A DNA stretch of 64,000 nt, from positions 288,001 to 352,000 of the forward strand of contig JAPDJW010000002.1 in the NCBI GenBank assembly GCA_029258885.1, written 5' to 3'. Below the pieces are notes generated by a model. It was not told where the DNA came from. It saw only the letters and a list, made by a program, of their open reading frames with translations, and made no database searches. Positions 6,740 through 39,660 of this stretch are shown in pieces. Numbering within the stretch: the stretch's first letter is position 1; every line of letters starts with the position of its first letter. The position numbers and the translations under genes were made by a program. The DNA comes from Thermoproteota archaeon. Lineage in GTDB: Archaea; Thermoproteota; Thermoprotei; Thermofilales; B9-G17.

Positions 6740-7140
6740 TAATTCACCTGAATAAACCTTCTAACAAAGGCTATAATTCTCTCAGCCGCGTCTATAGCTC
6801 TAAGTGAAGTTGTTTCATCGTAGGCTTCATGCGGGGTACCCGATGGATGAGCATTTGGATACCTTGAGGGAATATAGTGTCTATCGAGTTCTCTAGCATA
6901 ATTTAAAAGCTCTTCACTAGCTGAAAGCCCTCTAGAAGAAAAGAACCTTTCAAGCAGTACTCTAATACTATGTCCCCATGCAGCTTCATTTATACTATAC
7001 AATAGTGCCTTAACAGCTTTTTCAGCTGCCTGATGAGCATAAAAAGCAGCAGAATTATACCTTCCTTCTCGATGCAGTATCTTAGCTGTCTCTAGATCCC
7101 ATAAGCTCTCTGAAAGCCACCTCGATGCCTCATCTCGCAT
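6739..7140 (-). CDS. HEPN domain protein (partner of MNT)
   Basis: AAFYAHQAAEKAVKA, WGHS and RHYIPSRYP motifs; abuts the MNT gene. Confidence 0.9.
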   Translation of the reverse strand: MRDEASRWLSESLWDLETAKILHREGRYNSAAFYAHQAAEKAVKALLYSINEAAWGHSIRVLLERFFSSRGLSASEELLNYARELDRHYIPSRYPNAHPSGTPHEAYDETTSLRAIDAAERIIAFVRRFIQVN

Positions 7141-21000: not shown

Positions 21001-24000
21001 CAATATTCTCTTGAAATACTCAGGGCATGGCTCTAGACGTACCTAAGAATGAATATACACCAGCTTTCAATATTCTCTTGAAATACTCATCTTCTTCTCT
21101 AGGTCCTTAACCCTTTTAGACGACTTTCCTTTCAATATTCTCTTGAAATACTCAGATATCCAGGCATTTAGGTTCCGTTTCGGTAACGCCTTTCAATATT
21201 CTCTTGAAATACTCTAAAAGAAGAGGAAAAGTTAGCTATGCTGGATCTGCTTACTAACTTTCAATATTCTCTTGAAATACTCTCTTATTCACCCGAGCCA
21301 CGGCCTCTCTATTTTTTTTCACTTTCAATATTCTCTTGAAATACTCTTTACATCCTTGAACATTATACGCCATTCATCTACATCTTTCAATATTCTCTTG
21401 AAATACTCTTAGTGTCTCCATTTTTATCTTATATTGTTTCTGCAGCTGGAGTCTTTCAATATTCTCTTGAAATACTCTGCTGGTGTTTTCTTCGATGGTG
21501 GCTGCTGGCGTTGAATGGCTTTCAATATTCTCTTGAAATACTCAGTACGTATTTACACATATAGATGAATTCATAGTACTTGCGACTTTCAATATTCTCT
21601 TGAAATACTCGCGTGAAGTCTAGTTTTTTGAATGTTGTCTTATTATCAACTTTCAATATTCTCTTGAAATACTCGAGGAAAACTCTGAAAGAGGTTCAAA
21701 CCAGCAGTGTAACACCTTTCAATATTCTCTTGAAATACTCCCGCTGCAGTAAACAACTGTGTAAATTCACACTAGAAGAAATAACTTTCAATATTCTCTT
21801 GAAATACTCGTTACAATCAGCAGACCAGACTTCGAATACGCAGTTCTATACTTTCAATATTCTCTTGAAATACTCGTTTCAGAGGGGATGATGATCTTCA
21901 TCGGTTACAGTCTCAGCCTTTCAATATTCTCTTGAAATACTCTTTATACTCCCTTCTATATCTTATTTCTGAAAAACTAACTTTCAATATTCTCTTGAAA
22001 TACTCACAAGAAAAACGAGAACTACTAAGCATATGTAAAAGCTATGAGACTTTCAATATTCTCTTGAAATACTCCGGGGTTAGGCGGATACTTCCTCTGC
22101 TTAAGCTCCCACGCTTTCAATATTCTCTTGAAATACTCAAACTAAAATTCGAGGAATTCTGGGGAGTTTCTCCGGAGACTTTCAATATTCTCTTGAAATA
22201 CTCAATGAAGAAGGTGCCATGCCTCGTCGAGAAGATGACTACTTTCAATATTCTCTTGAAATACTCACTTAATGTTATCCACGTGTGTTGTACCATCGTG
22301 GCTTCTGACTTTCAATATTCTCTTGAAATACTCCTTAAAAAGTATATCTACGACCCGGAGTGCCACTGGGTTGCTTTCAATATTCTCTTGAAATACTCGC
22401 CACTAATAGATACGGTGGGGGCCCCCGCACAGAACATTATACTTTCAATATTCTCTTGAAATACTCAAACCAGAGAACCTCAGGGTAGACGTTACGGAAT
22501 TACCTGCTACTTTCAATATTCTCTTGAAATACTCGATTCGTAACTGTGTTAATGCAACCGCCATCCTTCGTATATACGACTTTCAATATTCTCTTGAAAT
22601 ACTCTCCTACAATCCTTCTCTCCTATATTCAAGTCCATCCCGACTTTCAATATTCTCTTGAAATACTCAATTCAATTAGCTCATCAAGGATAGTAGGGAT
22701 TACTCCTCTCTTTCAATATTCTCTTGAAATACTCCAAGAGGATAGTTAAAGCTGGTATCCATCCATTAGAGAAGAGCTTTCAATATTCTCTTGAAATACT
22801 CTACCGAGAAGAACAATAGCATTATTGTGCTAACATGCATTTCTTTCAATATTCTCTTGAAATACTCCGACAGCGTAAACAAAACGTGCAGCATGAAGCC
22901 GTGTAAACTGCTTTCAATATTCTCTTGAAATACTCATCGAATGTTGCATCAATGGTTGTTCAGAGCGGTACATCTTTCAATATTCTCTTGAAATACTCGA
23001 CAGGTCAAGTGTCTTACCTATGAAATTAACCTCTACCTCTACAGAGTACTTTCAATATTCTCTTGAAATACTCAACTAGTAACTATTAAGGTTAGAGGAG
23101 AGAATGGTAGAGCTTTCAATATTCTCTTGAAATACTCGTATGGTCGCAATCCGACCTCTTAAGGATATAGTAGATAAGTCTTTCAATATTCTCTTGAAAT
23201 ACTCTCCAGCGTTCATTTATGTGAAAAAATTGGAGGTGGGAGTACTTTCAATATTCTCTTGAAATACTCGTCATGTCCAACTGTCCTATGGACGCGGCCT
23301 CTAAAAGCACTTTCAATATTCTCTTGAAATACTCTCATACGTACCCGTCACGTATGTCTTGTAACTGTTAAACCTTTCAATATTCTCTTGAAATACTCAA
23401 TTGCTAGGTATCATATTGCATCTACCCAGCATCTAGCATCTTTCAATATTCTCTTGAAATACTCAAGAAGGGTGAACTTACACTAGGTGAGTTACTGACT
23501 ACTTTCAATATTCTCTTGAAATACTCTTACCCGAGAATGTCATTATCGTTACTTCTCGGGCGAATTCCTTTCAATATTCTCTTGAAATACTCAAGTTTTC
23601 TTCATTTCTGCGACCACCCTATAGATTTTTTAACTTTCAATATTCTCTTGAAATACTCGGAGCCAGCGAAAGTGAAGCCGAAGATACCCCGCGGAATAGC
23701 TTTCAATATTCTCTTGAAATACTCTAATCCAGATAGGATAAATATGGTGATTGTAGACACAAACTTTCAATATTCTCTTGAAATACTCTAAGGAGAAAAT
23801 GTGGAAGGAATGGGGGGAGTATCCAACTTTCAATATTCTCTTGAAATACTCCGAGAAATACACCGCGTTTCAAAAACTCTAAGGCCTGCTACTGAGCTTT
23901 CAATATTCTCTTGAAATACTCTTCACGATTTTTACCGTTATTGAATCGATATCCTGCTTTCAATATTCTCTTGAAATACTCGGACGCCACATTCGACGAC

Positions 24001-25227
24001 CAAATACAGACGCTAATAAATGACTTTCAATATTCTCTTGAAATACTCGAAGCTGTCGCCTAAAACATTAAAGCGGCTTAAAGTACTTTCAATATTCTCT
24101 TGAAATACTCAGAGGGCGTCAAGAGGTCGAGGGAGAAATGAGTGAGGTTATCTTTCAATATTCTCTTGAAATACTCCCTCTGCAGATAACAGGCGGCACA
24201 GTGAATGTTTCAGTAGCTCTTTCAATATTCTCTTGAAATACTCAGCTGGATATTAAAAGTGCTAGAAGAACGTTATAGAATTAGGACGGCTTTCAATATT
24301 CTCTTGAAATACTCCTTCTCGAGCCATTTTCTCCTATCTATTTTTAATACGCCCTTTCAATATTCTCTTGAAATACTCTTCGTCTGCGGGAAGCGTAGCT
24401 GGATATATAACTATATTTGTCTTTCAATATTCTCTTGAAATACTCTTGTGCTTACGGCTCCTGTGGGCGCAAGATATGCATGGTACTTTCAATATTCTCT
24501 TGAAATACTCCCCTGATATTTTCAATAATATACTTTAGATACTCTGGTTTATCTAGCGTATCTTTCAATATTCTCTTGAAATACTCCAAGTGAATAATTA
24601 TACACTCGGAGTATATAATAATGATGAAACCTTTCAATATTCTCTTGAAATACTCCTATAATACCAAACTGCCTACAGGTTCTCTCGATTTCCTTTCAAT
24701 ATTCTCTTGAAATACTCTCCAAATTTATTTTAACCATGCCTTCACCTACAGCTTCTTTCAATATTCTCTTGAAATACTCTCGCTTAATACTAAGCAGCAT
24801 GACATTATAACATGCACTTTCAATATTCTCTTGAAATACTCCTGGCGGTAGTATCGGTGTGGAGGCTTATGTCGGCGACTACTTTCAATATTCTCTTGAA
24901 ATACTCATGTAGCTATATTCTCCGTGTGGTCGATAAGATGATCTTTCAATATTCTCTTGAAATACTCTTGTCCACGTACGCCGAACCGTCGTGGCTTTGT
25001 ATCTTTAGTTCTTTCAATATTCTCTTGAAATACTCGAGTGTAAATACAAATGTCCGTACTGCGGTCAAGAATTCCTTTCAATATTCTCTTGAAATACTCG
25101 TGGTGCATTATCTAGGTCTAGTGTTCTGCTTTCCTTAGCTCTTTCAATATTCTCTTGAAATACTCTGGCTTACGCTGATGTTTCCGCAGTACAGAATCAT
25201 TACTTTCAATATTCTCTTGAAATACTC
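18028..25227 (-). CRISPR. CRISPR array 1: about 109 repeats and 108 spacers, transcribed leftward
   Basis: 25-bp repeat GAGTATTTCAAGAGAATATTGAAAG on the minus strand (plus: CTTTCAATATTCTCTTGAAATACTC); spacers mostly 36-47 bp; AT-rich leader on the right; degenerate repeats at 18028 and 18093. Confidence 0.99.
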
Positions 25228-25351
25228 CTATATGTTATTTTTCTCTTTTTGTATTTATTTGTTTTTATGAAATGGTTAGGTTCTTTTAAATTGTGCGCGT
25301 CTCTATCCTGTTATGATTGTAGCATGGATGCGCACGTTTTATTTTTTCTCT
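25228..25351 (-). promoter_or_regulatory. CRISPR leader of array 1
   Basis: AT-rich; shares CGTGCGCAT, GATAGA, ATTTAAA and AAAAGAGAAAAATAA with leader 2 at similar distances from the first repeat. Confidence 0.85.
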
Positions 25352-26035
25352 TTATATTATTTTTGAGTATGTTTCTAGGAGTATTCTCCCTAGTGGTGTT
25401 AGTTTTAGTGTTTTTGGTCGTTTTGATAACTCCTCTAGTAGTCCTGCGTATATTAGGTCTTGGGCTTGTCGGCTTATGCTTGATAGATCCTTATTCATCT
25501 TCCTTGCTAGCTCGTTCATAGGTATCTCGCCAACATTCGCTACCGTTTCTAATAGCTTAATTTTGCCCTTAGTTAATTCATCTATCGCGAATATTAGCTC
25601 CGATAGCATTGATATGTCCACTATATTCTCGAAATTCTCTGTCTCAACTTCTATCTTAATGTTTGGATTTCTATAGGATCTACAGGCAAGCATTACCGCT
25701 AATAGCAACTCTATTATGAGTATACGCATACCACCGCTTAAATTAACCACAACCTCATCGTATGTTTCAACTATACCCCTTATCGCTGGTATAAGTTTGA
25801 GCAATGCATCCGCAAAATCGTATACATTCACTGTATCCTCCTTAACCTCTACCTCCCTGCCATGATATTTGAAAACAAAATCCTTAACTGACCTAATAGC
25901 CTTCAAAGCCTTCTCCCCGATTGGCTCAAGAGTGAATAGAAAGAGTTTATCACCAGGATTCAAGCCCTCCCTAGTAATCATCCTTATTATAAATTTTTCA
26001 TCAAACCCTACGGTAGCCACTAAGGCTTTAGCCAT
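25352..26035 (-). CDS. csa3: CARF plus wHTH transcriptional regulator Csa3
   Basis: ATVGFDEKFIIR, NLSGGMR CARF motifs; C-terminal HTH (ELARKMNKDLSSISR). Confidence 0.9.
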   Translation of the reverse strand: MAKALVATVGFDEKFIIRMITREGLNPGDKLFLFTLEPIGEKALKAIRSVKDFVFKYHGREVEVKEDTVNVYDFADALLKLIPAIRGIVETYDEVVVNLSGGMRILIIELLLAVMLACRSYRNPNIKIEVETENFENIVDISMLSELIFAIDELTKGKIKLLETVANVGEIPMNELARKMNKDLSSISRQAQDLIYAGLLEELSKRPKTLKLTPLGRILLETYSKII

Positions 26036-26325
26036 AGCAACACCACAATATTAACAATTTAACTGAAACATAAATTTACTGAAAATTATCCTTTATGGCT
26101 TTTAAGTTACTAAAGATATAGCGATTCAGTTTAAATAATAGTGTTATGGATAGATGAAAGCTAATAATTAGCTACCCAATTTACTTGAATTATTTTTGCA
26201 TTTTTCCTTCTAAATTGTATCTGTCATACATAATTTTATGTTTTTGTCTTTTAATTTTTTGATATTTACAAATTTTTCATCTAAAAGAATATAAGTCAGT
26301 TTTACCATAAATATGAGGGGGTTCG

Positions 26326-26730
26326 ATGAACTCTCATAATAGAGAAATTATTTCAAGGATTTTTTCAGAGGAAGATTTAAAAAAAGCATTTGATAAATGT
26401 GTACGCTATCTTGCTGCTTATAGAATTGTTGAGGGTAACTTAGGTCTATTTGATAAGATGGCTAGATGTAGAGACTATAATGATTTTGTTAGCGCCATCT
26501 ATGAAGCTATGCGTGTAAAAGACAGAGTCCTCTCAAAACTTATCGAGGGAGTCGAGAAAAATCAATACGAGTTAATATTTAGGATTGAGGGCGATCTAAG
26601 AAAAGTCTTTGATATAGGCCAAGAGGATGTTGAAAAAATCTTTAAGTCTGCACTGGAAAACCCCCGAGTTGTTGGAACTGTTTTAGCCTCTCTCGCTTTA
26701 GCTTATAGTGGAATTCGTGTTAAGGGGTGA
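26326..26730 (+). CDS. csa5: Type I-A small subunit Csa5 (Cas11)
   Basis: 134-aa helical protein first in the Cascade operon, directly upstream of cas7. Confidence 0.75.
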   Translation: MNSHNREIISRIFSEEDLKKAFDKCVRYLAAYRIVEGNLGLFDKMARCRDYNDFVSAIYEAMRVKDRVLSKLIEGVEKNQYELIFRIEGDLRKVFDIGQEDVEKIFKSALENPRVVGTVLASLALAYSGIRVKG

Positions 26731-26736
26731 GAAAAT

Positions 26737-27702
26737 ATGGTTTATATACGGGTTTCGGGTAGGGCTATCGTAAATATTCATAGCGCTAATGCTGAAGGAT
26801 CTGTCGGAAACTATATGGGCTTAACAAAAATGTTTATTGTTCGCAGGACTCAGGATGGATACAATATTGTAGAGGATGTAGTAATTTCAGGTAACATGCT
26901 TAAACATTGGCATGCAGTCCGAGTAGTTGAAAGATTAAGAGATTTGAAATATAAAAAACTATGTAAATATTGTTCTAGATTTGTAATGTACAGATCTACG
27001 CTTGGATTTAAAGATGAATATGAGTTTATTAATGCTTGTGCTATAGAGGATCTTCACGGATTTCTTCAGCCGGATACTCAGGTTAGGAGAGAAAGTCTCG
27101 TGAAATTTGCTTTTATGATACCTATTGAGGAGATGAGAGCAGAATATGCTTCGGTAACTCATAATAGGGTAGTGGTAACGGAGAAAGGCAATATTCCTGC
27201 AAGAGAGCAGGCTATGATGGTTTTCAAGAGGGAATACGCGAGTGGAATCTATGGTTTTCTCTGTACAATGGATTTAGCATATGTGGGACGGCCCTTAGCT
27301 GATCCTCTTAACCCTAATAAAACTCTACCATTAGATGATCGTAAAATTAGGGCAAAACAAGCTATTCTTGCATTATCAGACATACTTACTGGCAGGTTTG
27401 GTGCAGCGGCTTCAAGAGCTATACCTACAATTAAGACTGAGGAATTTCTAGGAGTTATTAGTAAGCAGGCAATACCTAACCTTATTCACGGTTTCTATAA
27501 GGACTATATTGAGGAAAGCGGCAGAATATTAAAGAATATTATTGAAAATAAAGGCATCGAAAATATTAAAGTTTACGTTTCTGGCAACAAACCCATCGCT
27601 ATCATGAAGAAAATTTTACCAGGAGAGGCTTTAGAGGTTTGTAATTCCCCACTAGAAGCCTTAGCTAAGATGGCTAAGGTGTCCGAAACTTGGCTTACGT
27701 AG
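26737..27702 (+). CDS. cas7: Type I-A Cas7 (Csa2/DevR family)
   Basis: NIHSANAEG, ISGNMLKHWH, EDLHGFL, RRESLVKFAF, REYASGIYGF. Confidence 0.93.
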   Translation: MVYIRVSGRAIVNIHSANAEGSVGNYMGLTKMFIVRRTQDGYNIVEDVVISGNMLKHWHAVRVVERLRDLKYKKLCKYCSRFVMYRSTLGFKDEYEFINACAIEDLHGFLQPDTQVRRESLVKFAFMIPIEEMRAEYASVTHNRVVVTEKGNIPAREQAMMVFKREYASGIYGFLCTMDLAYVGRPLADPLNPNKTLPLDDRKIRAKQAILALSDILTGRFGAAASRAIPTIKTEEFLGVISKQAIPNLIHGFYKDYIEESGRILKNIIENKGIENIKVYVSGNKPIAIMKKILPGEALEVCNSPLEALAKMAKVSETWLT

Positions 27703-28514
27703 TTTTTGCTAAAATAAGATTTCCGATTTTTTCTATTAAACATCCAGAGGCATTTCAAATTAGATCATCGCTGTTCTTACCTCAACCTTCCACATTAATA
27801 GGAGCTTTAGCCTACTGTCTTGGAGTAAGTCAAAATATTGGATTAAATGCCTACAAGAGAGTTTTAGAGTATGTTTCAAACAAAAAAATCTTAGCAGCAA
27901 AGCCTTCACTTCTTAAAGATATTCCTCCCTTAACAGTTTCATCCATTGTTTTACGTAGATTTAGGATCGTTGATAAAGCATTTGAAACGAAGGAAAAGGG
28001 AGGAAGACCACCCATAAAGATACTTTATGAATATATCAATAAAGGAGAGATAGAGTCTGCAAGGAAAATAATCGAAGTTCAGCTAACTGATGCTTTTTAT
28101 AGAGAGTATATTTCTGGCTATGAAATTTTATGTGCTTGGGCTTTTAGAGATGACTTTGATTTTAATGAGGAACTGATCTACTTAATTCATAGGCTAGGAG
28201 ATACCGAATCTCTATGTAGCGTGATTAAAGTCTGGAAAGAGGAAGCTAAAGAAGCACGGAAGAAGATTATAGAAACTACTTTTGTTTCTCCTCTTAAGAA
28301 CGTGAAAACGTTGATTGGAAATTATGTAGCCATCAAAATGTGCAATGAACTGAGGAAGAAAGAGCTCTTCGCCATTCCGTATGAAATTACATACAGGAGT
28401 AGTGATGGTAAGCGCATTATGGTGATTAAGCCTACTACTATAAAAATTGAGTATGCATCTGAGGTGCCGGTTTTATGCACAAGCTATGGTGATATTGTTC
28501 AATTTCTGGGGTGA
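27690..28514 (+). CDS. cas5: Type I-A Cas5
   Basis: N-terminal FSIKHP...PQPSTLIGALAY and late RLGDTES RAMP motifs. Confidence 0.9.
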   Translation: MAYVVFAKIRFPIFSIKHPEAFQIRSSLFLPQPSTLIGALAYCLGVSQNIGLNAYKRVLEYVSNKKILAAKPSLLKDIPPLTVSSIVLRRFRIVDKAFETKEKGGRPPIKILYEYINKGEIESARKIIEVQLTDAFYREYISGYEILCAWAFRDDFDFNEELIYLIHRLGDTESLCSVIKVWKEEAKEARKKIIETTFVSPLKNVKTLIGNYVAIKMCNELRKKELFAIPYEITYRSSDGKRIMVIKPTTIKIEYASEVPVLCTSYGDIVQFLG

Positions 28515-28518
28515 AAAT

Positions 28519-29613
28519 ATGGTTTCCATATATACTCCAGGCCACTCCCTTTATACTGATTCCCTTATTATGTATGCAATAGTTTATTCTCTAAGAAACT
28601 TTTTTAATGAAAAATTCGACTTTAACGAAGATTTCGTAGCCGTAAATAGCATAGGTTCGGGCTTTAGAATTGATGTTAAAGACTTAGAATACGTGGATAT
28701 AGCTGAAGCTATCAGCAATGTTTTGATTGAGGAAAAAAGCGCTATTATAAGCTACCTATCTACTACTACAGAAGAGGCGCCATCTATAGGCCTATTTAAA
28801 GATAAAGATCTAAAGGTACTTGATTGTCTAACTAATTCACGCGAAGTTCTTAATTATCTTAGTAGGGAGCTAGCTACTCCTGGACACGCTCTTAAGGAGG
28901 GTAGAGAAGGAAAAGGTATTACTTTTAAGCTTCCTACCATGCCTTATGCTGGAAAATATCTTCATGCTGATATTACTAAATTTAGAAAGTATCCTGCTAA
29001 ATCCTATAAGACATGTAAATATTGTTTATCATTAGCTCTATTTGGATTAAAAGTTTCTTCTATGGTATTACGGTGGAGCAGGTCTAGATTTATAAACATA
29101 TTTTCCTTTGATGGTGAAGTAAATTCTGAATATTTTCGCGCCTTTTTTGAGTATATTAAGAGCGAGGAATACAAAGATGTCATTAGAACCTATGGTAAAG
29201 CAGTAGAAGATATACCTATGAGGAATCTAGCCTACTTCTTAGTATTGGAAGCTGGTAGTGATCTGCTTAGTATAATGAAGTCGATGTGTGCACGTTGGAT
29301 TACGTGTAGCGTTCTCTTTGAAATATCACGTGGAGTTCCTCAAATCCGAGGATATCAGGAAAATGATGTAAGTAGCATCGTTGAAAATAGCGTAAAAATG
29401 TTTGAATTGATTACATCACCTATCGAAATAATCCGATTAATAGGTAACTTAGTGAGGAGAGGTGAAGCTGAGGCATTAGATCATTTCTTCAACTTCCTGC
29501 GCTCTCCTAACTTAAATCATTTATACAATTTTGTGAGAGAATCTTATGTTTCTCGGAGCGAAACATTAATTTCAAGTAGTATTGTTTGGAACCTTATTAA
29601 ATTAGTTATATAG
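28519..29613 (+). CDS. cas8a2: Type I-A large subunit Cas8a2 (Csa4-like)
   Basis: MVSIYTPGH N-terminus, CxxC (CKYC), position between cas5 and cas3; start taken at ATG 28519. Confidence 0.75.
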   Translation: MVSIYTPGHSLYTDSLIMYAIVYSLRNFFNEKFDFNEDFVAVNSIGSGFRIDVKDLEYVDIAEAISNVLIEEKSAIISYLSTTTEEAPSIGLFKDKDLKVLDCLTNSREVLNYLSRELATPGHALKEGREGKGITFKLPTMPYAGKYLHADITKFRKYPAKSYKTCKYCLSLALFGLKVSSMVLRWSRSRFINIFSFDGEVNSEYFRAFFEYIKSEEYKDVIRTYGKAVEDIPMRNLAYFLVLEAGSDLLSIMKSMCARWITCSVLFEISRGVPQIRGYQENDVSSIVENSVKMFELITSPIEIIRLIGNLVRRGEAEALDHFFNFLRSPNLNHLYNFVRESYVSRSETLISSSIVWNLIKLVI

Positions 29614-29616
29614 ATT

Positions 29617-31353
29617 ATGGCTATGTCCTCTTTTTCTGAGTATTGGTCGGCTGTAGGAAAAATAGTTAAAGCTAGGGGGCATTCCCTTAAACGTTATAAG
29701 TTCTTTGAAGATGTCTGGGAGGCATTAGATGATGGGAAAAATGTTATTTTAATAGCTCCAACTGGCTGTGGCAAGACTGAGGCTACAACAGTACCATTTC
29801 TATATAACTTAATAAATGGTAATCGGCAGGCCTTTTCCTTAGTGTATACGTTACCTGCAAGATCCCTCGCATCCAACATGTATGATAGATTATGTAAATC
29901 GCTAAGGATTCTAGAATCTAAGGATATTGTTTGTAATATAGATTACGGAGAATTTTTAGAATTTAAACCCTATCTAGAAGGCGACGTTGTTGTAACAACA
30001 TATGACACACTTTTCTATACTTTCTATGGCTTTCGCAGATTAGGCTTTCACGTGCTACTTCATACAGGTAAAATTGCCGGCTCATACATAATATTTGATG
30101 AAGCCCAACTGTTACAAGATAACTTCTGGTATTCTCTAAGCCTTCTGCCAAAACATATTAGGGCTTTATGTAAGTGGAGGGCTCAGATAGTTGTTATGAC
30201 GGCAACGCTTCCAGATGTTTTATTGAAAGAGCTCAATAAATTTATGAAAAATAACGTTGAGGTTATATTTGCTGAAGATAAGCCCTCGAGGGGAAAACTT
30301 AGCGTTACAATAATGAATTCTAAAATTCCCATTAATGGTGAGGAATTACTGAAATTAATTTCTGGAGAGTTACCAGCTCTAATTGTTGTAAATACTGTTA
30401 GTAAGGCAGTTAAAATATATAAAAGCTTATATAATTGTGTTCATGGTAAGGGTATCGATTTGTTACTATTGCATTCTAGACTTAGGCTTGGAGTAAGGAA
30501 AGAAAGAGAGAAGTTTTTCGAGAGAAATAAGAAAGACAATATTATTGTTATTGCAACCCAAGTGGTTGAGGCTGGGTTAGATTATCATTTTAAGACGCTT
30601 TTAACAGAGCTGTCTCCTATAGATTCCTTAATACAGAGGCTGGGACGATGTGCTAGGAAAAGCGACGGTAAGGCATATGTGTTCATTAATCTTGATAAAG
30701 ATAGTAAAAAGATTTATCCGGATAATATCTTGAACATTTCTAAGGAGACTATCCTAAGATACCAAGATATTTTATGTGAGTCTGTTAGAAATGTTTTTAT
30801 CGCAAGTAAGTTAGTAAACGAGGTCTATACTGAGAGAGTAATTAACGAGCTCACTAAGCCTGTGATGAAAGAGATAAATAATGTTTCAATATTTATAGAC
30901 AACTTCTATGAATATATTTTCAAGGGTAGATTTGACAAAGACTTAAACTTGCTTAGATTAGGATTTGAAATAATATGCTGGTATGCTTCAGAAAATATTT
31001 TCAAGAGATTAATTAAGGGCGAAACTGTTGAATGCAGTATAGAAGATTTTAGAGATAACATTGTTAGGTTATCTTGTATGCTAAATATGAACAATAAAAA
31101 CATTCGTCTTCCTAAAGCGGTGTTGATTAATATAGAGGGGAATGAATGTTTACTGCTATTAGAAACTAATTTTATGCAGGAAAAAGTATATTTAAGGGTT
31201 AAGGAGAAGATTAGTAAAAATAATTTTCGTTTTCTTGAAGCAAAAAGTAGATATCCTAGGATCTTCCTCTTAAATCCGCATTTCTATGAAAGAAATACCT
31301 ATGGAGATCTTGGTGTTATTAGTCTTTGGAGGCCGGCGAGCTATGTTTCCTGA
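29617..31353 (+). CDS. cas3: Cas3' helicase
   Basis: APTGCGKT, DEAQ, MTAT, LLHSR, ATQVVEAGLD, QRLGRCAR. Confidence 0.95.
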   Translation: MAMSSFSEYWSAVGKIVKARGHSLKRYKFFEDVWEALDDGKNVILIAPTGCGKTEATTVPFLYNLINGNRQAFSLVYTLPARSLASNMYDRLCKSLRILESKDIVCNIDYGEFLEFKPYLEGDVVVTTYDTLFYTFYGFRRLGFHVLLHTGKIAGSYIIFDEAQLLQDNFWYSLSLLPKHIRALCKWRAQIVVMTATLPDVLLKELNKFMKNNVEVIFAEDKPSRGKLSVTIMNSKIPINGEELLKLISGELPALIVVNTVSKAVKIYKSLYNCVHGKGIDLLLLHSRLRLGVRKEREKFFERNKKDNIIVIATQVVEAGLDYHFKTLLTELSPIDSLIQRLGRCARKSDGKAYVFINLDKDSKKIYPDNILNISKETILRYQDILCESVRNVFIASKLVNEVYTERVINELTKPVMKEINNVSIFIDNFYEYIFKGRFDKDLNLLRLGFEIICWYASENIFKRLIKGETVECSIEDFRDNIVRLSCMLNMNNKNIRLPKAVLINIEGNECLLLLETNFMQEKVYLRVKEKISKNNFRFLEAKSRYPRIFLLNPHFYERNTYGDLGVISLWRPASYVS

Positions 31354-32176
31354 ATGTCAAGTGCTACAGGAAGTTTTAGGACTTAAACGTATCCCCTGTA
31401 AGCCCTGTATTGCTAAGCATTTTCCCTCATATTACAAGAAAAATTCCGGTATACAATTTATGGGCTGTTGGATAGCCCATACCGCTTTAGCGTATTATGA
31501 ATTGAAAAGATGTAGACGGTGCATAGAAAGAATTCTAAATAAGTTAGGGATTTCATGGAACGCTTTAGAGTTACTAGTGCTATTACACGATGCAGGAAAA
31601 CTTTCAGAGAAATACGGCTTTTCAAATATTCAGCATAACATCTTATCAGCTGTCATCTCGATAAAATGTTTGGAAGATTCTAAGATATTGAATAAACGAG
31701 AAAGATATGCTGTCTCCTTGGCTATAGCTCTACATCATGAGGCATATCATTGGAGAGAAGTCTGTAGATATAATTTACACTTTGCAAGTAGCATTAAAAT
31801 ACAACCTTTTACCTTAAGAAAAAACTATCAACAGGCACTTATCTGTTTATCTAAGATCGTCTCTAAGATTCAATGCTCGGAGGAGGTCTTAGAAATACTA
31901 ACAAGGATTAAGCCAACATATAGCAGAGCCGATGTGGAAACAGTCAAAATAAATTTAATTCCACTTAAAAATCTGAGACCGTTAGCTATCCCCTTATATT
32001 GGCTTTTATTTCTGGCAGATAATAGAGCGGCAAGTGCAAGAAATGGGGTAGAAAAATATTGGAGGAATATTCTGAACAGATTATCAGAAGATATTAGAAA
32101 GAACCCAGAGAAACTTGGAAAAGAACTTTTTAGTAAACTTTCGCACGGGTATATTGCGTTAAGCCTGCTTTGCTGA
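31343..32176 (+). CDS. cas3'': Cas3'' HD nuclease
   Basis: AH...LHDAGK...HNILSA...HHEA, ADNRAAS; start taken at ATG 31343. Confidence 0.9.
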   Translation: MFPECQVLQEVLGLKRIPCKPCIAKHFPSYYKKNSGIQFMGCWIAHTALAYYELKRCRRCIERILNKLGISWNALELLVLLHDAGKLSEKYGFSNIQHNILSAVISIKCLEDSKILNKRERYAVSLAIALHHEAYHWREVCRYNLHFASSIKIQPFTLRKNYQQALICLSKIVSKIQCSEEVLEILTRIKPTYSRADVETVKINLIPLKNLRPLAIPLYWLLFLADNRAASARNGVEKYWRNILNRLSEDIRKNPEKLGKELFSKLSHGYIALSLLC

Positions 32177-32416
32177 TTAACTAGAAAAACTGTAATATGA
32201 TAATAGCATGGAGTTATCGGCTAAGATTATTGATATGAAAGGTTAATTAGTTTCCTTAACAAATAGTTTATAGCATTATAATGGAATATAGGCATATTGC
32301 TTTTTAATGGATATTGCTTACCATTCATTAAGGATGTTTAATTGCATATATTAAGCAAGAAATACCATAATTATAATCTTTTTACCATTTATTAAAGATG
32401 TTTTCTGGTATTTAAT

Positions 32417-33364
32417 ATGATGATTCTCTATCGTTTGGATAGTGCTTTGAAGCGTGTTAATTTGTTGGTTTCTCGTGTTGGGGTTTCTAGTGAGCTTAGG
32501 GGTTGGTGTTGGGATAGGCCTCCTGTTGAGCCTCCTGTTCATGGTGTTTATTTGCCGATTTATGAGCTTGCTAATAGGTATTGTGAGAGTATGCGTGATA
32601 TTTATTTGAGGTATGTTGAGGGTGTTGAGGTTAAGCCTAATGTTGCTATGGTTGAGGGTAGGGTTTATCATGAGGTTGTGAAATCTGTTCTTACACTTGC
32701 TAAGAAGGTTGTGTATGGCTTGGATATTGTTGAGGGCTTTAGGCTTCTTCAGATTATGTCTTCCAGGAGGAAAAGCTATCTTAATGGCATCTTGAAGTCC
32801 TGTTTGAAGCCTATTGATGCATCTGATGTTGAGAGTGAGGTTGCTAGGCTTAAGGCTAGGGCGTGTAATTTATGGAACTACTTGACGCTCTACGTCTCAT
32901 CTAACCTGGATTTGGTTAGGTCCCGCTATAGGACTATTGAGCTCGACTCTCTGGTTGCTCTCGCTATCCCCCATATTGTTGAGTTTAAGGTTGATGGTAC
33001 GTTGCTTGGTTTGAGCCGTGAGCTTTCTGTTGATGTATTTAATCCACAGAATGTTGTTCTCGAGATTAAGACGGGTAGGAGGATGCGTTTCCATAGGTTT
33101 GTTGTCGGAGGCTATGCTTTAGCTCTTGAGTCCGCTAATGAGGTTCCGGTTAATCTTGGCGCTGTAATGTACATACACTTTGATCAACGTAATCTGCCGG
33201 TTGTAACATTGAACTATCATTTCATTGGTGATGAGATTAGGAGGGATTTCCTGGAGCTTAGGGATACTGCTCTCGAGATAATCTATAATGAGAGAGATCC
33301 AGGACTCCCTCCAAAGTGCTACAAGTACTGTGTCTATAGGGAGTATTGTAGGGGAAGGCGTTGA
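32417..33364 (+). CDS. csa1: Cas4-like protein Csa1 (Cas4a)
   Basis: LRGWCWDRPPV, YCESMRDIYL, EIKTG, C-terminal CYKYCVYREYC. Confidence 0.9.
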   Translation: MMILYRLDSALKRVNLLVSRVGVSSELRGWCWDRPPVEPPVHGVYLPIYELANRYCESMRDIYLRYVEGVEVKPNVAMVEGRVYHEVVKSVLTLAKKVVYGLDIVEGFRLLQIMSSRRKSYLNGILKSCLKPIDASDVESEVARLKARACNLWNYLTLYVSSNLDLVRSRYRTIELDSLVALAIPHIVEFKVDGTLLGLSRELSVDVFNPQNVVLEIKTGRRMRFHRFVVGGYALALESANEVPVNLGAVMYIHFDQRNLPVVTLNYHFIGDEIRRDFLELRDTALEIIYNERDPGLPPKCYKYCVYREYCRGRR

Positions 33365-34389
33365 AGGTTCTCGTTGTTGAGAGGTATGGATGCTTTATCG
33401 GCTGTAGAAACGGTAAGGTCGTGGTTAGGAGTAAGCGTGAAAAGCTCGCCGAGGAGCCAGCCGTTAACTTGAGGGTTGTCCGCGTTAAATGTAGGGGTAC
33501 ATCTATTTCAGGGGATTTTATTAGGCTTGCTGTTAGACACGGTATTTTTACGGTTTTTACCTCTAGCTCTGGTAGGCCTATAGGTGTTGTAGCACCATTT
33601 ATTCCTAAGTCGAGTATTCTCGTCCGTAGGGAGCAGTATAAGGCCTATAGCGACTATAGGTGTATTGAGCTTGCGAGGGGCTTCATATATGGGAAGATAC
33701 ATAACCAGGAGAGCCTGCTTAGGAGCGTTATTAAGAGTAAACGTAGCCTGAATACGGGGGTAAAGCTTATTCTAGTGAGTACTATTGAGGAGTTAAGGGA
33801 TCTTAGGAACAGCCTATACGCTAGGAGTTTTAATGATGTACAGGAGGCTCGAACTGAAATATTGTCCATTGAGGCTATAGCTGCGGAGAAGTATTGGAGC
33901 TGCTGGAAGACGATACTTCCCGAGGAATTGGAGTTTCCGGGCAGGAGGAAGCGCTCCGATATGCCCGAGGATCCGGTTAACATTATGCTCAACTATCTGT
34001 ATTCGATTCTCGCCTCAGAGGTGTGGATAGCGTTGCTGGTATCTGGATTGGATCCGATAGCAGGCTTTCTACATATGGATAGCCCTAGGCGGCCTGGATT
34101 AGTATATGATTTGATGGAGGAGTTTAGAGCGCCGATTGTCGATAAGGTTGTTTTGAATATAGCGTTGAAGGAGGGTGGTTCACTTAAGTCCTGGATAGAT
34201 GATAGGATGAGGCTGACTAAGGAGGCACGTATGTTGCTGAGCAGTAGTATGCTGGAGAGGCTTGAGGTTAAGTACAGCTATGGTGGGGTTAAGCTGCCGT
34301 TTAGACTGCATATTTTAAGGCAGAGTAGGAAGATTGTACGTTATCTACGTGGAATGTCTCCACGATACGTCCCGTTTAGGTGGAAGTAG
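33361..34389 (+). CDS. cas1: Cas1 integrase
   Basis: IEAIAAEKYW, DPVNIMLNYLY, GFLH, LVYDLMEEFR. Confidence 0.96.
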   Translation: MKVLVVERYGCFIGCRNGKVVVRSKREKLAEEPAVNLRVVRVKCRGTSISGDFIRLAVRHGIFTVFTSSSGRPIGVVAPFIPKSSILVRREQYKAYSDYRCIELARGFIYGKIHNQESLLRSVIKSKRSLNTGVKLILVSTIEELRDLRNSLYARSFNDVQEARTEILSIEAIAAEKYWSCWKTILPEELEFPGRRKRSDMPEDPVNIMLNYLYSILASEVWIALLVSGLDPIAGFLHMDSPRRPGLVYDLMEEFRAPIVDKVVLNIALKEGGSLKSWIDDRMRLTKEARMLLSSSMLERLEVKYSYGGVKLPFRLHILRQSRKIVRYLRGMSPRYVPFRWK

Positions 34390-34686
34390 TTGGCTAGGGA
34401 AACCCTAGTTATATACGATATAAGCGATGACGGGTTAAGGCTTAAGGTAAGCAAGGTCTGCGAGTCGTTCGGCCTCGTTAGGATACAGAAGAGCGCGTTC
34501 TTGGGGAAGATGGAGAGTAGCTATAGGAAGGAGCTTATAGCTAAGCTTAGAATGTTGCTTAACAGGGAGGGGTGTGATAGGGACAATATACAGGTATTCG
34601 TCTTCAGCAGCCAATGCCTATGCGATAGGGTAATTATAGGCAGACAGTTCGGTGTAAAAGTTGAGGAGAGACTGCTATACATCTGA
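34390..34686 (+). CDS. cas2: Cas2
   Basis: LVIYDISDD, RIQKSAF. Confidence 0.95.
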   Translation: MARETLVIYDISDDGLRLKVSKVCESFGLVRIQKSAFLGKMESSYRKELIAKLRMLLNREGCDRDNIQVFVFSSQCLCDRVIIGRQFGVKVEERLLYI

Positions 34687-35269
34687 AATCCTAATCGATG
34701 TAACGGATGTAAAACAGTACTTCTTCTGCCCGAGAATAGTATACTTCAACCACGTATTAGGCTACTACGAGAGAACAACGGAAAGTGAGGTTGAGGGAAA
34801 GGAGGTACACGAGGAACTATGGAATAAGGAGAAAAGGAGAAAGACGATCCTGAAGAAGAGAAGACTAAGCGGCTACGAGAAGATATTCGGCTTAAGGCTC
34901 TACTCAAGAAGACTAAGGCTTAAGGGGATATTGGACTGCCTAGCATATAGGGATAAAGAGTACGTACCGATAGAGTATAAGGAGACAAACTATCCAGGAT
35001 ACCTACCTGCAAACCATAAGTATCAGCTAGTAGCCTACTCACTATTAGTCGATGAGACGTACAATACGATAGTCAGATACGGATATATATACTACTCAAA
35101 ATCCGATAAACTAGCTAAAGTAAAGCTAACGATCGATATGAAAAGATACGTTAGGGAAACAGTGGATAAGATAATTAATATAATTATTAATGAATATCTA
35201 CCACCTGTAAGAACTAGGAAAAGCCGATGCATAAACTGTGGATACTATAAAATATGCCAGAGAGTATAA
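34661..35269 (+). CDS. cas4: Cas4 nuclease
   Basis: DVKQYFFCPR, GILD, PIEYK, QLVAY, CINCGYYKIC. Confidence 0.95.
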   Translation: MRRDCYTSEILIDVTDVKQYFFCPRIVYFNHVLGYYERTTESEVEGKEVHEELWNKEKRRKTILKKRRLSGYEKIFGLRLYSRRLRLKGILDCLAYRDKEYVPIEYKETNYPGYLPANHKYQLVAYSLLVDETYNTIVRYGYIYYSKSDKLAKVKLTIDMKRYVRETVDKIINIIINEYLPPVRTRKSRCINCGYYKICQRV

Positions 35270-35400
35270 CATATTTTAAGCAGACGCCAGAATTATAGAC
35301 ATTATTAAAAGCCTAAATTTCAGTCAAGCTACTAAAGAACTTTAAGTTAATGCGTTTTAATAGGTAAGTATATTTAAGCAACCGTTTATTCATAGTGAAA

Positions 35401-35534
35401 TATTTAAAAAGAAAAACAATAATGCGTGCGCATTCTAACTCAGCATAGTACGAGATAGAAAACGGCACGGTATTTAAATAACTCGCAGAACGAAAATAAT
35501 GCTTAAATAATCAAAAGAGAAAAATAAACATAAT
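35401..35534 (+). promoter_or_regulatory. CRISPR leader of array 2
   Basis: AT-rich; homologous to leader 1 (CGTGCGCAT at 35425, AAAAGAGAAAAATAA near the first repeat). Confidence 0.85.
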
Positions 35535-38500
35535 GTGTATTTCAAGAGAATATTGAAAGCATATACATCACGATTCTCCTTACGTCTTTCAATTAAATAC
35601 TGTGTATTTCAAGAGAATATTGAAAGTCCTCAATCCAAGTCGGCCGTCCAACGTAGAATGGAATCGTGTATTTCAAGAGAATATTGAAAGTTCACGGAAC
35701 TGTGGATCCTCAACCAGAAGTTTCGGTATGTCGTGTATTTCAAGAGAATATTGAAAGCCAGCTCAAATGCCACATATGCGGTAAGGTGTTTGAGGGGGTG
35801 TATTTCAAGAGAATATTGAAAGCTTATAAACCTCCTCGACCGCCCCGGTTAAAGTGTTGGTGTATTTCAAGAGAATATTGAAAGGATATTTGGCACATAT
35901 CCTCTACAGCTTTAACGTATATGTCGTGTATTTCAAGAGAATATTGAAAGTCAAATTCCAGTAGTGCGAAAACTCCGGGGTCTCGGTGTATTTCAAGAGA
36001 ATATTGAAAGAAAACAGCTAGAGGGTCAGGGACATGATTAGTAGGCGTGTGTATTTCAAGAGAATATTGAAAGTACGCTTATCAGAGCGGTGTAGTCGCC
36101 GCCGTTTGTGAGTGTGGGTGTATTTCAAGAGAATATTGAAAGCTGCGCTTATGAATTCTTCTAGGAACTCACGTACCTTAGGTGTATTTCAAGAGAATAT
36201 TGAAAGCTATTCCATACAGCAACGAAGGGGAAAATACTATGCCAAGGTGTATTTCAAGAGAATATTGAAAGATGTATAATTATTTCTCCATCCACCCACC
36301 ATCACCCCGCATGGGTGTATTTCAAGAGAATATTGAAAGTCTTTTGAAAATAGATCAAACATACTTAATTTAAAGCCTTCTTTAGTGTATTTCAAGAGAA
36401 TATTGAAAGGCCATCACTCGTAATAGCCTGTATAGCTAGGCGGCCGTGTATTTCAAGAGAATATTGAAAGCTGAAACACTGTGCAATTTATCTTAAACGA
36501 AAATGCTAAAGTGTATTTCAAGAGAATATTGAAAGGCGTACTCGTACACGTTTACACTGTGCAATCTATTAAACGTGTATTTCAAGAGAATATTGAAAGA
36601 TCTATCCAGCGCCCTAAACTGATGCTCCGTAATATGGAGTGTATTTCAAGAGAATATTGAAAGTGTTTAATCATGATATCACTGAACTTTATTTTGTTGT
36701 CTCCGGTGTATTTCAAGAGAATATTGAAAGTCCTTAACGCTAATACGTTAGTTAGAGTCTCTGAACTTACTGTGTATTTCAAGAGAATATTGAAAGTAGA
36801 ATGCTTCTCAGCATCCGCCGACACTTCACAAGTGTATTTCAAGAGAATATTGAAAGGCGGGTAGCGTTTGCTCAAAAGTGATTTCTACATTAGTCCATTC
36901 GTGTATTTCAAGAGAATATTGAAAGTTATAACAAGCTGATTCGCTGAAGCATTAACAATAATCCTAGTGTATTTCAAGAGAATATTGAAAGTTTTTTAAT
37001 TGTTTGCGATAGCCGCGGCTAGAGCGATGGTGTATTTCAAGAGAATATTGAAAGAGGAAGGTTGAGACGCCGAGTAAAGAGATTGTTAGTGAGAAGTGTA
37101 TTTCAAGAGAATATTGAAAGCTCCCCGAAAACGATTTCCTCCATTATGCTTAGAATTAGGTGTATTTCAAGAGAATATTGAAAGTTATCATTCAATAGTG
37201 GCTTTAAACTAACAATAACAAATAGTGTATTTCAAGAGAATATTGAAAGGAATTATTTATACTCCGCCCCCACTTCTCCCGGACACGGCCGTGTATTTCA
37301 AGAGAATATTGAAAGTCTAACTTAACATGGACCTTAAGCGGTTTAAAGACTTGTGTATTTCAAGAGAATATTGAAAGCTTCAATAAGATAACGGACTATC
37401 GCTATTTCATCAAGTAGTGTATTTCAAGAGAATATTGAAAGTCTACTACGTCAACCCGGGCTTCATAATTGCGGATGCTAAGGCGTGTATTTCAAGAGAA
37501 TATTGAAAGGAGCTTATCGTAAATACGGCAAGGGGAATAGTAGCAACAGTGTATTTCAAGAGAATATTGAAAGGGACAGAATAAACCACCGCTACATCAA
37601 ACAATTCATAACAGTGTATTTCAAGAGAATATTGAAAGAGTTGTATAAATCTAATAATGCTAGAATATCTTCTCTCTTGTGTATTTCAAGAGAATATTGA
37701 AAGTGTATTGTTTCACCTGTGCTATTAACTACTTTAAGAGTGTATTTCAAGAGAATATTGAAAGTAAGTCGAAAACTGCATCGGCATTGAAAAACCACCT
37801 TGCATAGGTGTATTTCAAGAGAATATTGAAAGAGACACCGGCGGCGTACTCACTAACGTAGCAGCGCTTAAGTGTATTTCAAGAGAATATTGAAAGCCTA
37901 ATACCCAAACACACCACCCAATAAACCCAAAAACCCCAGTGTATTTCAAGAGAATATTGAAAGTATTATATCGGGGCTATGTGTATGGCCACCAGTCGGC
38001 GCGGGTGTATTTCAAGAGAATATTGAAAGATGGTAGAACTTTAATCTACCCACCAAAGGAGTATCAAAAGAAGTGTATTTCAAGAGAATATTGAAAGGTA
38101 ACACTCCAGCTGTCAACATAATCCCAATTAGGTGTATTTCAAGAGAATATTGAAAGTCTTTCTTAGCTTTTTTATTGCATCCTCTGGCTGCATAATAGTG
38201 TATTTCAAGAGAATATTGAAAGGTTCTAGTAACGGGCGTAGGTCATGGAAATCAAACGACTTTCAGTGTTATTTCAAGAGAATATTGAAAGGCAAGTGCT
38301 GATGCAAGCGGTGATTTCTACGTTACAGCAGAGTGTATTTCAAGAGAATATTGAAAGATCTATCTTGAGTACGCCCGGCATATATAATCACCCTTTCGTG
38401 TATTTCAAGAGAATATTGAAAGTTGAACCATCTTATCCACCTTTCAGCTTTTCAGTCTCAAGGTGTATTTCAAGAGAATATTGAAAGTTGGATGATTTAT

Positions 38501-39660
38501 ATAGCGATAAAAAGCTTATAGCAGTTTTTGGTGTATTTCAAGAGAATATTGAAAGAATCAGTATGATTATACGGGAAATGGAGATTGGTGGACTCCTAGT
38601 GTATTTCAAGAGAATATTGAAAGGCTATCTCCTTACCGAAATCAGTAAGCCTTATAATCCTAGGTGTATTTCAAGAGAATATTGAAAGAGTAATCTCGCT
38701 TATCTCCTCCATAAGCCAGACTAACATGTGTATTTCAAGAGAATATTGAAAGGTGTCCATTTTCGTGGCATACTATCACTTTTAACTTAAAAGTGTATTT
38801 CAAGAGAATATTGAAAGACAGTCCTGAAGCATTTCTATTTCCATCGCCTAGAAGTCCGTGTATTTCAAGAGAATATTGAAAGACCAAACCGGTCTCGTTT
38901 AGATAGTCGTAGAGATCCATTAGTGTATTTCAAGAGAATATTGAAAGTAACTGAGAGGGGGATGAGAGTGCTTGAGCTGGTTATTGAAAGTGTATTTCAA
39001 GAGAATATTGAAAGGGTGGCTGCTTTAATAGACCCAGACACGATTGAACGCTGTCGGTGTATTTCAAGAGAATATTGAAAGATACTTAAATATACGTTTT
39101 CGAAGGCATGTAATGTGCTAGGTGTATTTCAAGAGAATATTGAAAGCATACACTAGAGGTTACCAAACAAGGTTTCGAGCCATAGTGTATTTCAAGAGAA
39201 TATTGAAAGGAGATACAGTTGAGTGTCGTAGTATTCCAGTTCATCTGTATTTCAAGAGAATATTGAAAGCTTCCCCTGTAACTTTTTTCACGAAATCCTT
39301 AGCCCACCCGTGTATTTCAAGAGAATATTGAAAGGCCGCCGCAAAAGCCATGCATCCCGAACTCCCAGAAAGCTGGGTGTATTTCAAGAGAATATTGAAA
39401 GCGTCCACGACGAGCATCCCACGTACGTCTGTCCATTCTGCGTGTATTTCAAGAGAATATTGAAAGACTTATCTACTATATCTTTAAGAGGTCTGATTGC
39501 GACCATACGTGTATTTCAAGAGAATATTGAAAGTTTTGAACATGCCAGTTTCTTCCCGCATTCTCCCATGCCTAGAGTATTTCAAGAGAATATTGAAAGG
39601 TAATTAGGTTGCTTACGTAGCTGTTGCTGTAGCCCGAGTATTTCAGGAGAATATTGAAAG
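35535..39660 (+). CRISPR. CRISPR array 2: about 64 repeats and 63 spacers, plus a degenerate terminal repeat near 39696-39722
   Basis: 25-bp repeat GTGTATTTCAAGAGAATATTGAAAG; the last two repeats (39575, 39636) begin GAG. Confidence 0.99.

Follow-up and report, generated by a model that had tools for sequence, protein, structure and literature searches.

A protospacer of a circular archaeal element was probably captured twice, from two strains, by the paired CRISPR arrays of a hydrothermal vent archaeon

Repeated capture of a single site by separate CRISPR spacers has been known since 2010, when 41 pairs of independently acquired matching spacers were found in a population of Sulfolobus islandicus, 37 of the 41 being offset and some of them carrying single nucleotide polymorphisms (SNPs) (Held et al., 2010, PMC2946923). 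The type I-A systems of Sulfolobales acquire spacers behind a CCN protospacer adjacent motif (PAM) and measure them with an imprecise ruler (PMC4390879). In Sulfolobus type I-A, annealing depends critically on the first few bases next to the PAM, and the system tolerates several mismatches (PMC4390879); in population studies of Sulfolobus, up to four mismatches were counted as immune (PMC6452263). Here we describe a 64,000-nt stretch of the genome of a Thermoproteota archaeon (GCA_029258885.1; order Thermofilales), namely positions 288,001 to 352,000 of the contig JAPDJW010000002.1 (hereafter the window). The host genome is a 2.1-Mb assembly in 26 contigs. The window contains two large CRISPR arrays, A and B, with a common 25-nt repeat, an inverted relative orientation, and 171 spacers in total. 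One spacer of array A (A32) and one of array B (B61) are nearly identical to each other, and we regard them as the very probable outcome of two separate acquisitions of one protospacer, from two strains of one mobile-element lineage.

Counted from the leader of array A, spacer A32 (23138–23179, − strand) is the 32nd; spacer B61 (39467–39508, + strand) is the third from the trailer of array B. Both are 42 nt in length, possess identical ends and the same orientation in CRISPR RNA (crRNA), and differ at two positions, crRNA positions 17 (C in A32 and T in B61) and 28 (G and T, respectively). Their sequences, lengths, ends, orientation, and two differences, as well as their positions in the arrays, were read exactly as in the preliminary description of this DNA. 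In an all-against-all BLAST comparison of the 171 spacers, A32 and B61 were the sole near-identical pair over the full length (40/42, E 7e-16), a match far beyond chance. The repeats on the trailer side (23113–23137, − strand) and on the leader side (23180–23204, − strand) of A32 are both of the GAG variant, the type of array A. Those on the leader side (39442–39466, + strand) and on the trailer side (39509–39533, + strand) of B61 are both of the GTG variant, the type of array B, and the variable base of the latter repeat is located 2 nt from the spacer end. The spacers flanking the pair (A31 and A33 versus B60 and B62) are unrelated to each other. We compared the region 23100–39550 of the window with the Logan contigs of the probable source run (X1) and of two sister runs; the contigs of X1 showed zero differing letters over the covered stretch, both spacers included, albeit this agreement reflects the same data processed by a different assembler and is not independent support. 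The sister run X3 yielded no contig over this region, which does not amount to evidence of absence.

The pair resembles those reported from S. islandicus (Held et al., 2010, PMC2946923) in belonging to a crenarchaeal type I-A system with a CC PAM, in bearing SNPs, and in mixing leader and trailer positions. In contrast to the latter pairs, which were found between strains, A32 and B61 reside in two arrays of one genome and share both ends and length. Furthermore, unlike in the previous study, the invader allele was recovered in this study, which fixes the reading frame. The locus also has much in common with the type I-A systems of Sulfolobales (PMC4390879), as, on the crRNA-like strand, CCN lies on the 5′ side of the protospacer, one adaptation cassette stands between two arrays, and the spacer length is variable (34–53 nt here). 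On the other hand, the three pairs of spacers that share a PAM in this genome are all exactly 42 nt long, unlike what the imprecise ruler of Sulfolobales produces, and the host is a vent archaeon of Thermoprotei; the only run holding the spacer is labelled as a hydrothermal vent metagenome. Thus, the present case is a well-resolved example of a known phenomenon, not a new principle.

Direct searches for the protospacer yielded no match in the INPHARED phages, PLSDB plasmids, JGI metagenomes, or GTDB genomes, and none in IMG/VR by either an exact or a wobble-degenerate pattern. In the host genome and 60 relatives, the protospacer sequence was found only as the two array copies. The whole arrays had no match in phages, and IMG/VR scans with the patterns of spacers A9 and A25 found nothing. 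One contig of the sister run X2 (depth 9.49) links the matches of A25, B61, and A9 without repeats and extends into non-repeat sequence. A chimeric query of 81 amino acids (aa), composed of the translated open frames of the spacer pieces in the X2 contig and its loose end, had no match among proteins of similar length and a single match among longer proteins, the 157-aa protein P0001, which led to a contig of 17,122 bp in an ENA assembly (ERZ25515408 NODE_719; hereafter L003). P0001 is also encoded by L004 (Logan SRR24791474, 3,172 bp), which is a 3.2-kb contig from a sister sample of the vent study and represents a piece of the element. The geometry of the X2 contig is reproduced exactly in L004 (A25 at 1935–1975, B61 at 2392–2433, and A9 at about 3047–3082), where the 90 nt between the A9 site and the contig end correspond to the 90-letter loose end of the X2 contig.

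The two ends of L003 share a 55-nt direct overlap, and the contig is thus a complete circle of about 17.07 kb. It carries approximately 35 open reading frames (ORFs), mostly small, including those for ParB-like, C2H2 zinc-finger, methyltransferase-like, and 668-aa coiled-coil proteins. L003 is a virus-like or plasmid-like circular element, in which no known virus family was recognised. Two related elements, L005 (from a 16.4-kb scaffold) and L007, have the same local gene order as L003. The sister sample of run X2 contains a related host strain, of which the cas genes differ by a few percent and the arrays bear mostly other spacers. The same sample also holds an L003-type element that is perfectly targeted by B61, A104, and A105 of the genome studied here.

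The site L003:6820–6861 is identical to B61 (42/42) and agrees with A32 at 40/42. On the crRNA-like strand, it is immediately preceded on the 5′ side by CCC (6817–6819), and the B61 sequence stands at 42/42 behind CCC in L004 as well as in L003. On the opposite strand, the site overlaps the start of a gene for a 149-aa protein, P0002 (L003:6410–6859, − strand). This gene starts with MVAIRPLKDIVDKW, and the N-terminus of the protein reads MVAIRPLKDIVDKWATV. The protospacer comprises 2 nt of the 5′ untranslated region and codons 1–13 of the gene, just downstream of a GGAGGTG Shine-Dalgarno-like box. The two alleles differ in the codons for Arg5 (AGA/CGA) and Lys8 (AAA/AAG), both changes being silent. 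The preliminary description had proposed that the protospacer is coding and had selected an ATG and a frame, in which both changes were silent. The ATG turned out to be the real start of a conserved gene on the ~17-kb circular element, and the synonymy holds in the independently defined frame of P0002. On the strand quoted in that description, frame +3 is the only open frame. In the true frame, two random substitutions are both silent with a chance of 7.8%.

P0002 has 28 homologues in metagenomes, with identities of 45–69%. An alignment of 24 members of the family shows a conserved N-terminus, with an invariant K13 and with W14 in at least 90% of the sequences. PAM positions −1 and −2 face both G's of the TGG codon for Trp14, and the first base of codon 15 is opposite position −3. 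Thus, a part of the PAM is held by the constraint on the protein, as it lies opposite a near-invariant tryptophan codon. P0002 belongs to no Pfam or PHROG family, and its AlphaFold model, all-helical with a predicted local distance difference test (pLDDT) score of 76, had no significant Foldseek match in BFVD or PDB. The only named relative was found through a weak tblastn match to a protein of Huginn virus (E 4e-3).

In arrays A and B, at least 28 spacers match L003, with identities of 62–100% (spacer A4, described below, fell below the threshold). They range from the oldest positions (A104 and A105, both at 42/42, A100, and B59–B61) to the newest (A9, B3, and B5). A CCN PAM (CC at −3 and −2) accompanies 23 of the 28 matches, against a background of 4.8% (1633 CCN sites in about 34,000 positions). 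The long-lived invader postulated in the preliminary description is borne out by these matches, since the lineage is diverse and was sampled from the trailer to the leader ends of both arrays. The closest to our subject is A31 (23205–23244, − strand), the neighbour of A32 in the array, which corresponds to L003:6859–6898 and overlaps the A32 site by 3 nt. Its CCA PAM is located inside the A32 protospacer. The first 22 nt of A31 match L003 at 21/22, and the remainder diverges in the intergenic promoter region; this divergence indicates that the host was then sampling another strain, at that very place. Spacer A25 (23593–23633, − strand) matches L003:6363–6403 at 40/41 behind the PAM CCT, in the start region of the next gene, and A9 (24656–24692, − strand) matches L003:7476–7512 at 31/37 behind CCG, inside the divergent gene for P0001. 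Two spacers adjoining B61, B59 and B60 (39335–39441, + strand), are directed against the same element with the PAM CCA in both cases, at 28/42 and 37/40, respectively; the mismatches of B59 are distributed in a wobble-like pattern, and this spacer encodes AAAKAMHPELPESW of P0001.

Elsewhere on L003, spacers A4 (24968–25010), A45 (22267–22308), and A101 (18522–18563) overlap one 55-nt stretch (4780–4834) of a gene for a 248-aa protein. The three spacers are of different ages, are directed against both strands, and match different alleles (38/42, 31/42, and 27/43), so this stretch was sampled repeatedly from several strains.

Outside the window, in a different array, spacers C30 (C1:549044–549085) and C40 (C1:549833–549874) are both 42 nt long and have the same ends with seven differences between them. 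Five of the seven are at wobble positions of a single open frame, in which the spacers encode PVLKLLEEKYNLR and PILKILEEKYNLR. The two spacers represent a second case of one site captured from diverged invaders, and they show that independent same-end recapture occurs in this genome. In addition, the 42-nt spacers A38 (22735–22776) of array A and C24 (C1:548583–548624), the latter also outside the window, are identical to each other and have the same crRNA orientation. The array containing C24 is built on a different, 35-nt repeat (GCTACAGAAATACTCTCAAAAAAGAGAATTGAGAG), as opposed to the 25-nt type I-A repeat next to A38. Because the two arrays belong to different repeat families, repeat-mediated exchange is unlikely, and the same prespacer seems to have entered both. 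The invader targeted by A38 and C24 was not found in IMG/VR or JGI. As the spacers are of exactly equal length in all three pairs (A32/B61, C30/C40, and A38/C24), the distal cut seems to be set by the site, not by an imprecise ruler.

Altogether, the two-strain origin of A32 and B61 put forward in the preliminary description is well supported by the array-specific flanking repeats and by A31. B61, which is among the oldest spacers of array B, would have been taken from an L003-type strain, and A32 would have been taken later, into array A, from a strain differing at two synonymous sites, both by Cas1-Cas2(-Cas4) acting at one site behind a CCN PAM. A31 would then be the next acquisition, from the adjacent site of a strain with an upstream intergenic region unlike that of L003. 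PAM-anchored cutting, together with a distal cut that the site determines, would account for the identical ends, and neither array would have copied the spacer from the other. We infer from these data the existence of an invader with the A32 allele and a common source of A31 and A32. Independent capture is further backed by the repeated encounters with the lineage, recorded by 28 spacers from the oldest to the newest positions, and by C30/C40 and A38/C24, which serve as positive controls.

The pair could in principle also descend from a single acquisition, if the spacer was copied between arrays B and A by recombination or gene conversion via the common repeats and was subsequently mutated twice in the array. 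The repeats of the two arrays are nearly identical and inverted, the mirrored GAG and GTG repeats at the trailers suggest at least one past recombination, and the identical length and ends are what a copy would show. However, each spacer lies between repeats of its own array (GAG/GAG for A32 and GTG/GTG for B61). Given the distance of only 2 nt between the variable repeat base and the end of the spacer, a conversion tract would need to stop within a single nucleotide. No flanking spacer was transferred together with the pair, and no neighbouring spacer is common to the two array contexts. As B61 is the natural allele, the younger A32 must be the mutated copy under this scenario, yet the ~99 leader-side repeats of array A, or roughly 2,500 nt, bear zero mutations, which makes two mutations of A32 in the array unlikely. 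Moreover, both changes would be silent only by the chance given above, A31, acquired next, came from the adjacent site of a non-L003 strain, and C30/C40 demonstrate independent same-end recapture in this genome. We thus consider copying highly improbable. A further scenario, in which the same L003-type allele was acquired twice independently and A32 was mutated twice thereafter in the array, appears to be marginally less probable still. The PAM is a good one, and a same-site pair of any length is expected with p = 0.21 (28 spacers and 1633 CCN sites). Nevertheless, two mutations are needed in 42 nt, with none in the neighbouring repeats, both have to be silent (p = 0.078), and A31 shows that a non-L003 strain was being sampled at that moment.

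Primed or interference-driven adaptation is of a different kind, as it refines the two-strain acquisition of A32 and B61 and does not exclude it. The crRNA of B61 would have recognised the variant despite two mismatches outside the seed, and local DNA fragments from type I-A interference would have been fed to Cas1-Cas2, giving rise to A32 and then A31. As in the primed adaptation by the type I-B system of Pyrococcus furiosus (PMC7293040), new spacers from one target region were added after an older spacer with a full or partial match to the invader. The older B61 target and A32 coincide exactly, and A31 and A32, adjacent in the array, are adjacent on the invader as well, for which we estimated the chance at ~0.06 (any of 11 array-adjacent pairs within 50 nt on a 17-kb circle). 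Likewise, six spacers fall in the 1.15 kb of L003:6363–7512, where about 1.9 are expected, although both of these local statistics are post hoc. In contrast to primed adaptation, the protospacers on L003 lack overall clustering, the nearest-neighbour distances of the 28 being those of random CCN sites (P about 0.4–0.5). Priming has not been shown for type I-A: none was found in the type I-A system of Sulfolobales (PMC4390879), and in P. furiosus type I-B primes and type I-A does not (PMC7293040). We therefore regard priming as rather unlikely here, and as slightly less likely again the combined version, in which B61-guided interference primed both A32 and A31 and was coupled to two-ended, site-determined cutting that gives identical 42-nt spacers even across repeat families (A38 = C24). 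If true, the latter would be natural evidence of interference-driven adaptation in type I-A, where experiments so far found none.

Several points weigh against the two-strain origin of A32 and B61. The preliminary description assumed two alleles in invader DNA; the B61 allele was found with its CCC PAM, and the A32 allele was found in no invader DNA, being absent from INPHARED, PLSDB, IMG/VR, the JGI metagenomes, and the GTDB genomes. The cluster of P0002 at 90% identity, from which the A32 allele is likewise absent, has one member, and the nearest homologue is only 69% identical. The study that yielded the host also yielded L004, so the habitat evidence represents a single campaign. Two changes are a small sample for judging synonymy, and the chance of both being silent rises to 20% if any open frame of the six is allowed; as read from the sequence alone, before the frame was fixed independently, synonymy was weak evidence. 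Finally, the equal length in all three same-site pairs could also point to an unknown copying route.

Two other proposals of the preliminary description are not supported. The substitutions between A32 and B61 had been taken as silent escape mutations. In the evolutionary study of Sulfolobus islandicus rod-shaped virus (SIRV) (Pauly et al., 2019, PMC6452263), mismatches between spacer and protospacer were used, as in this study, to read the history of virus and host, and the escape signatures were concentrated in the PAM and the PAM-proximal seed. Unlike those signatures, the differences between A32 and B61 (positions 17 and 28) fall outside the seed, which makes escape unlikely, and type I-A of Sulfolobus tolerates several mismatches (PMC4390879, PMC6452263). 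The variant element was probably still targeted by B61. The precise acquisition hotspot proposed in the same description is likewise unsupported, in view of the absence of overall clustering and of the probability of 0.21 for a same-site pair, which falls to ~0.02 when equal length is demanded (with a length-match probability of 0.108). Apart from the pair, A43 (22399–22441) matches L003:8013–8055 at 42/43 with GTA, not CCN, in the 5′ flank, and the L003 sites of A29 (TCA) and A30 (CAG) are also devoid of a CCN PAM. As candidates for PAM escape in L003, these three sites rank above the differences between A32 and B61.

Array A (18028–25227, − strand) consists of 109 repeats of 25 nt and 108 spacers, with the leader end at 25227 and degenerate trailer repeats at 18028–18117; the two repeats at its trailer end carry mutations and belong to the GTG type. 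Array B (35535–39660, + strand) consists of 64 repeats, of the GTG variant except for the last two (GAG), and 63 spacers, with the leader end at 35535 and the trailer end at 39660. In the crRNA sense, the repeat of array A reads GAGTATTTCAAGAGAATATTGAAAG, and the repeats of both arrays can be summarized as G[A/T]GTATTTCAAGAGAATATTGAAAG, ending in the usual ATTGAAAG handle. The position of this handle at the repeat end indicates − strand transcription for array A and + strand transcription for array B, so that the two arrays are read away from the cassette between them. The polarity agrees with the mutated terminal repeats at the outer ends and with the related A-rich leaders at the inner ends, namely the leader of array A (25228–25420, − strand), which is A-rich and has blocks in common with that of array B, and the leader of array B (35342–35534, + strand). 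It is supported as well by a Logan contig of the probable source run, in which two copies of the repeat next to the leader of array A (25201–25227 in the window) are separated by ~40 extra letters, corresponding to one more spacer than in the window. The extra spacer suggests either ongoing acquisition or a collapse in the assembly, and it had no match to L003.

The repeat variants at the two trailers (18028–18117 and 39575–39660) mirror each other, as array A is GAG throughout except for the last two repeats (GTG) and array B is GTG throughout except for the last two (GAG). A single inversion through recombination between inverted repeats close to the two trailers, in which the cassette and both array bodies were flipped, would fit this arrangement. 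Spacer A69 (20682–20732) is 51 nt long, ends in CAAAGAGAATATTGA, a stretch similar to the 3′ portion of the repeat, and is probably what remains of a damaged repeat-spacer unit. Spacer B17 (36600–36638) matches the host chromosome at C1:356601–356634, 4.6 kb past the window end, over 34 nt with four mismatches (E 7e-4), which may represent a decayed self-target or an integrated element.

The cas cassette between the arrays (25352–35269, + strand) comprises csa3 (on the − strand), cas7/csa2, cas5a, a weak cas8a2/csa4-like gene, cas3′, cas3″ (HD), csa1, cas1, an ORF for 98 aa, and cas4. The backbone of Cas7/Csa2 (TIGR02583, 222.7 bits against a cutoff of 212.6) and Cas5a (TIGR01874, 91.1 bits against 23.05) is present, as is the Cas3′ helicase (TIGR01587, 183 bits against 102). 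The separate gene for a putative Cas3″ HD nuclease scored slightly below the cutoff (TIGR01596, 40.0 bits against 43.45). The putative large subunit resembling Cas8a2/Csa4 reached 35 bits against a cutoff of 232.5 (TIGR01914), with a full-length match and at the expected gene position. The adaptation module adjoining the arrays contains Csa1 (TIGR01896, 223 bits), Cas1 (TIGR00287, 227 bits), and Cas4 (TIGR00372, 124 bits), and the 98-aa ORF (34390–34686) is a candidate for Cas2 by its position. The cassette is assigned to type I-A (Csa type). The relatives of this Cas1 in GTDB are at most 49% identical.

The two spacers and their neighbours provide a clean natural record of one host that met diverged strains of one mobile element across its whole CRISPR history, and they tie a complete, uncharacterised circular archaeal element of ~17 kb to its vent-archaeon host by 28 spacers. 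The case also illustrates that repeated sampling with identical ends can occur at a PAM that lies at the start of a conserved gene and that a near-invariant tryptophan codon holds partly in place, and it gives, as a by-product, a hint that spacer cutting may be precise at both ends.

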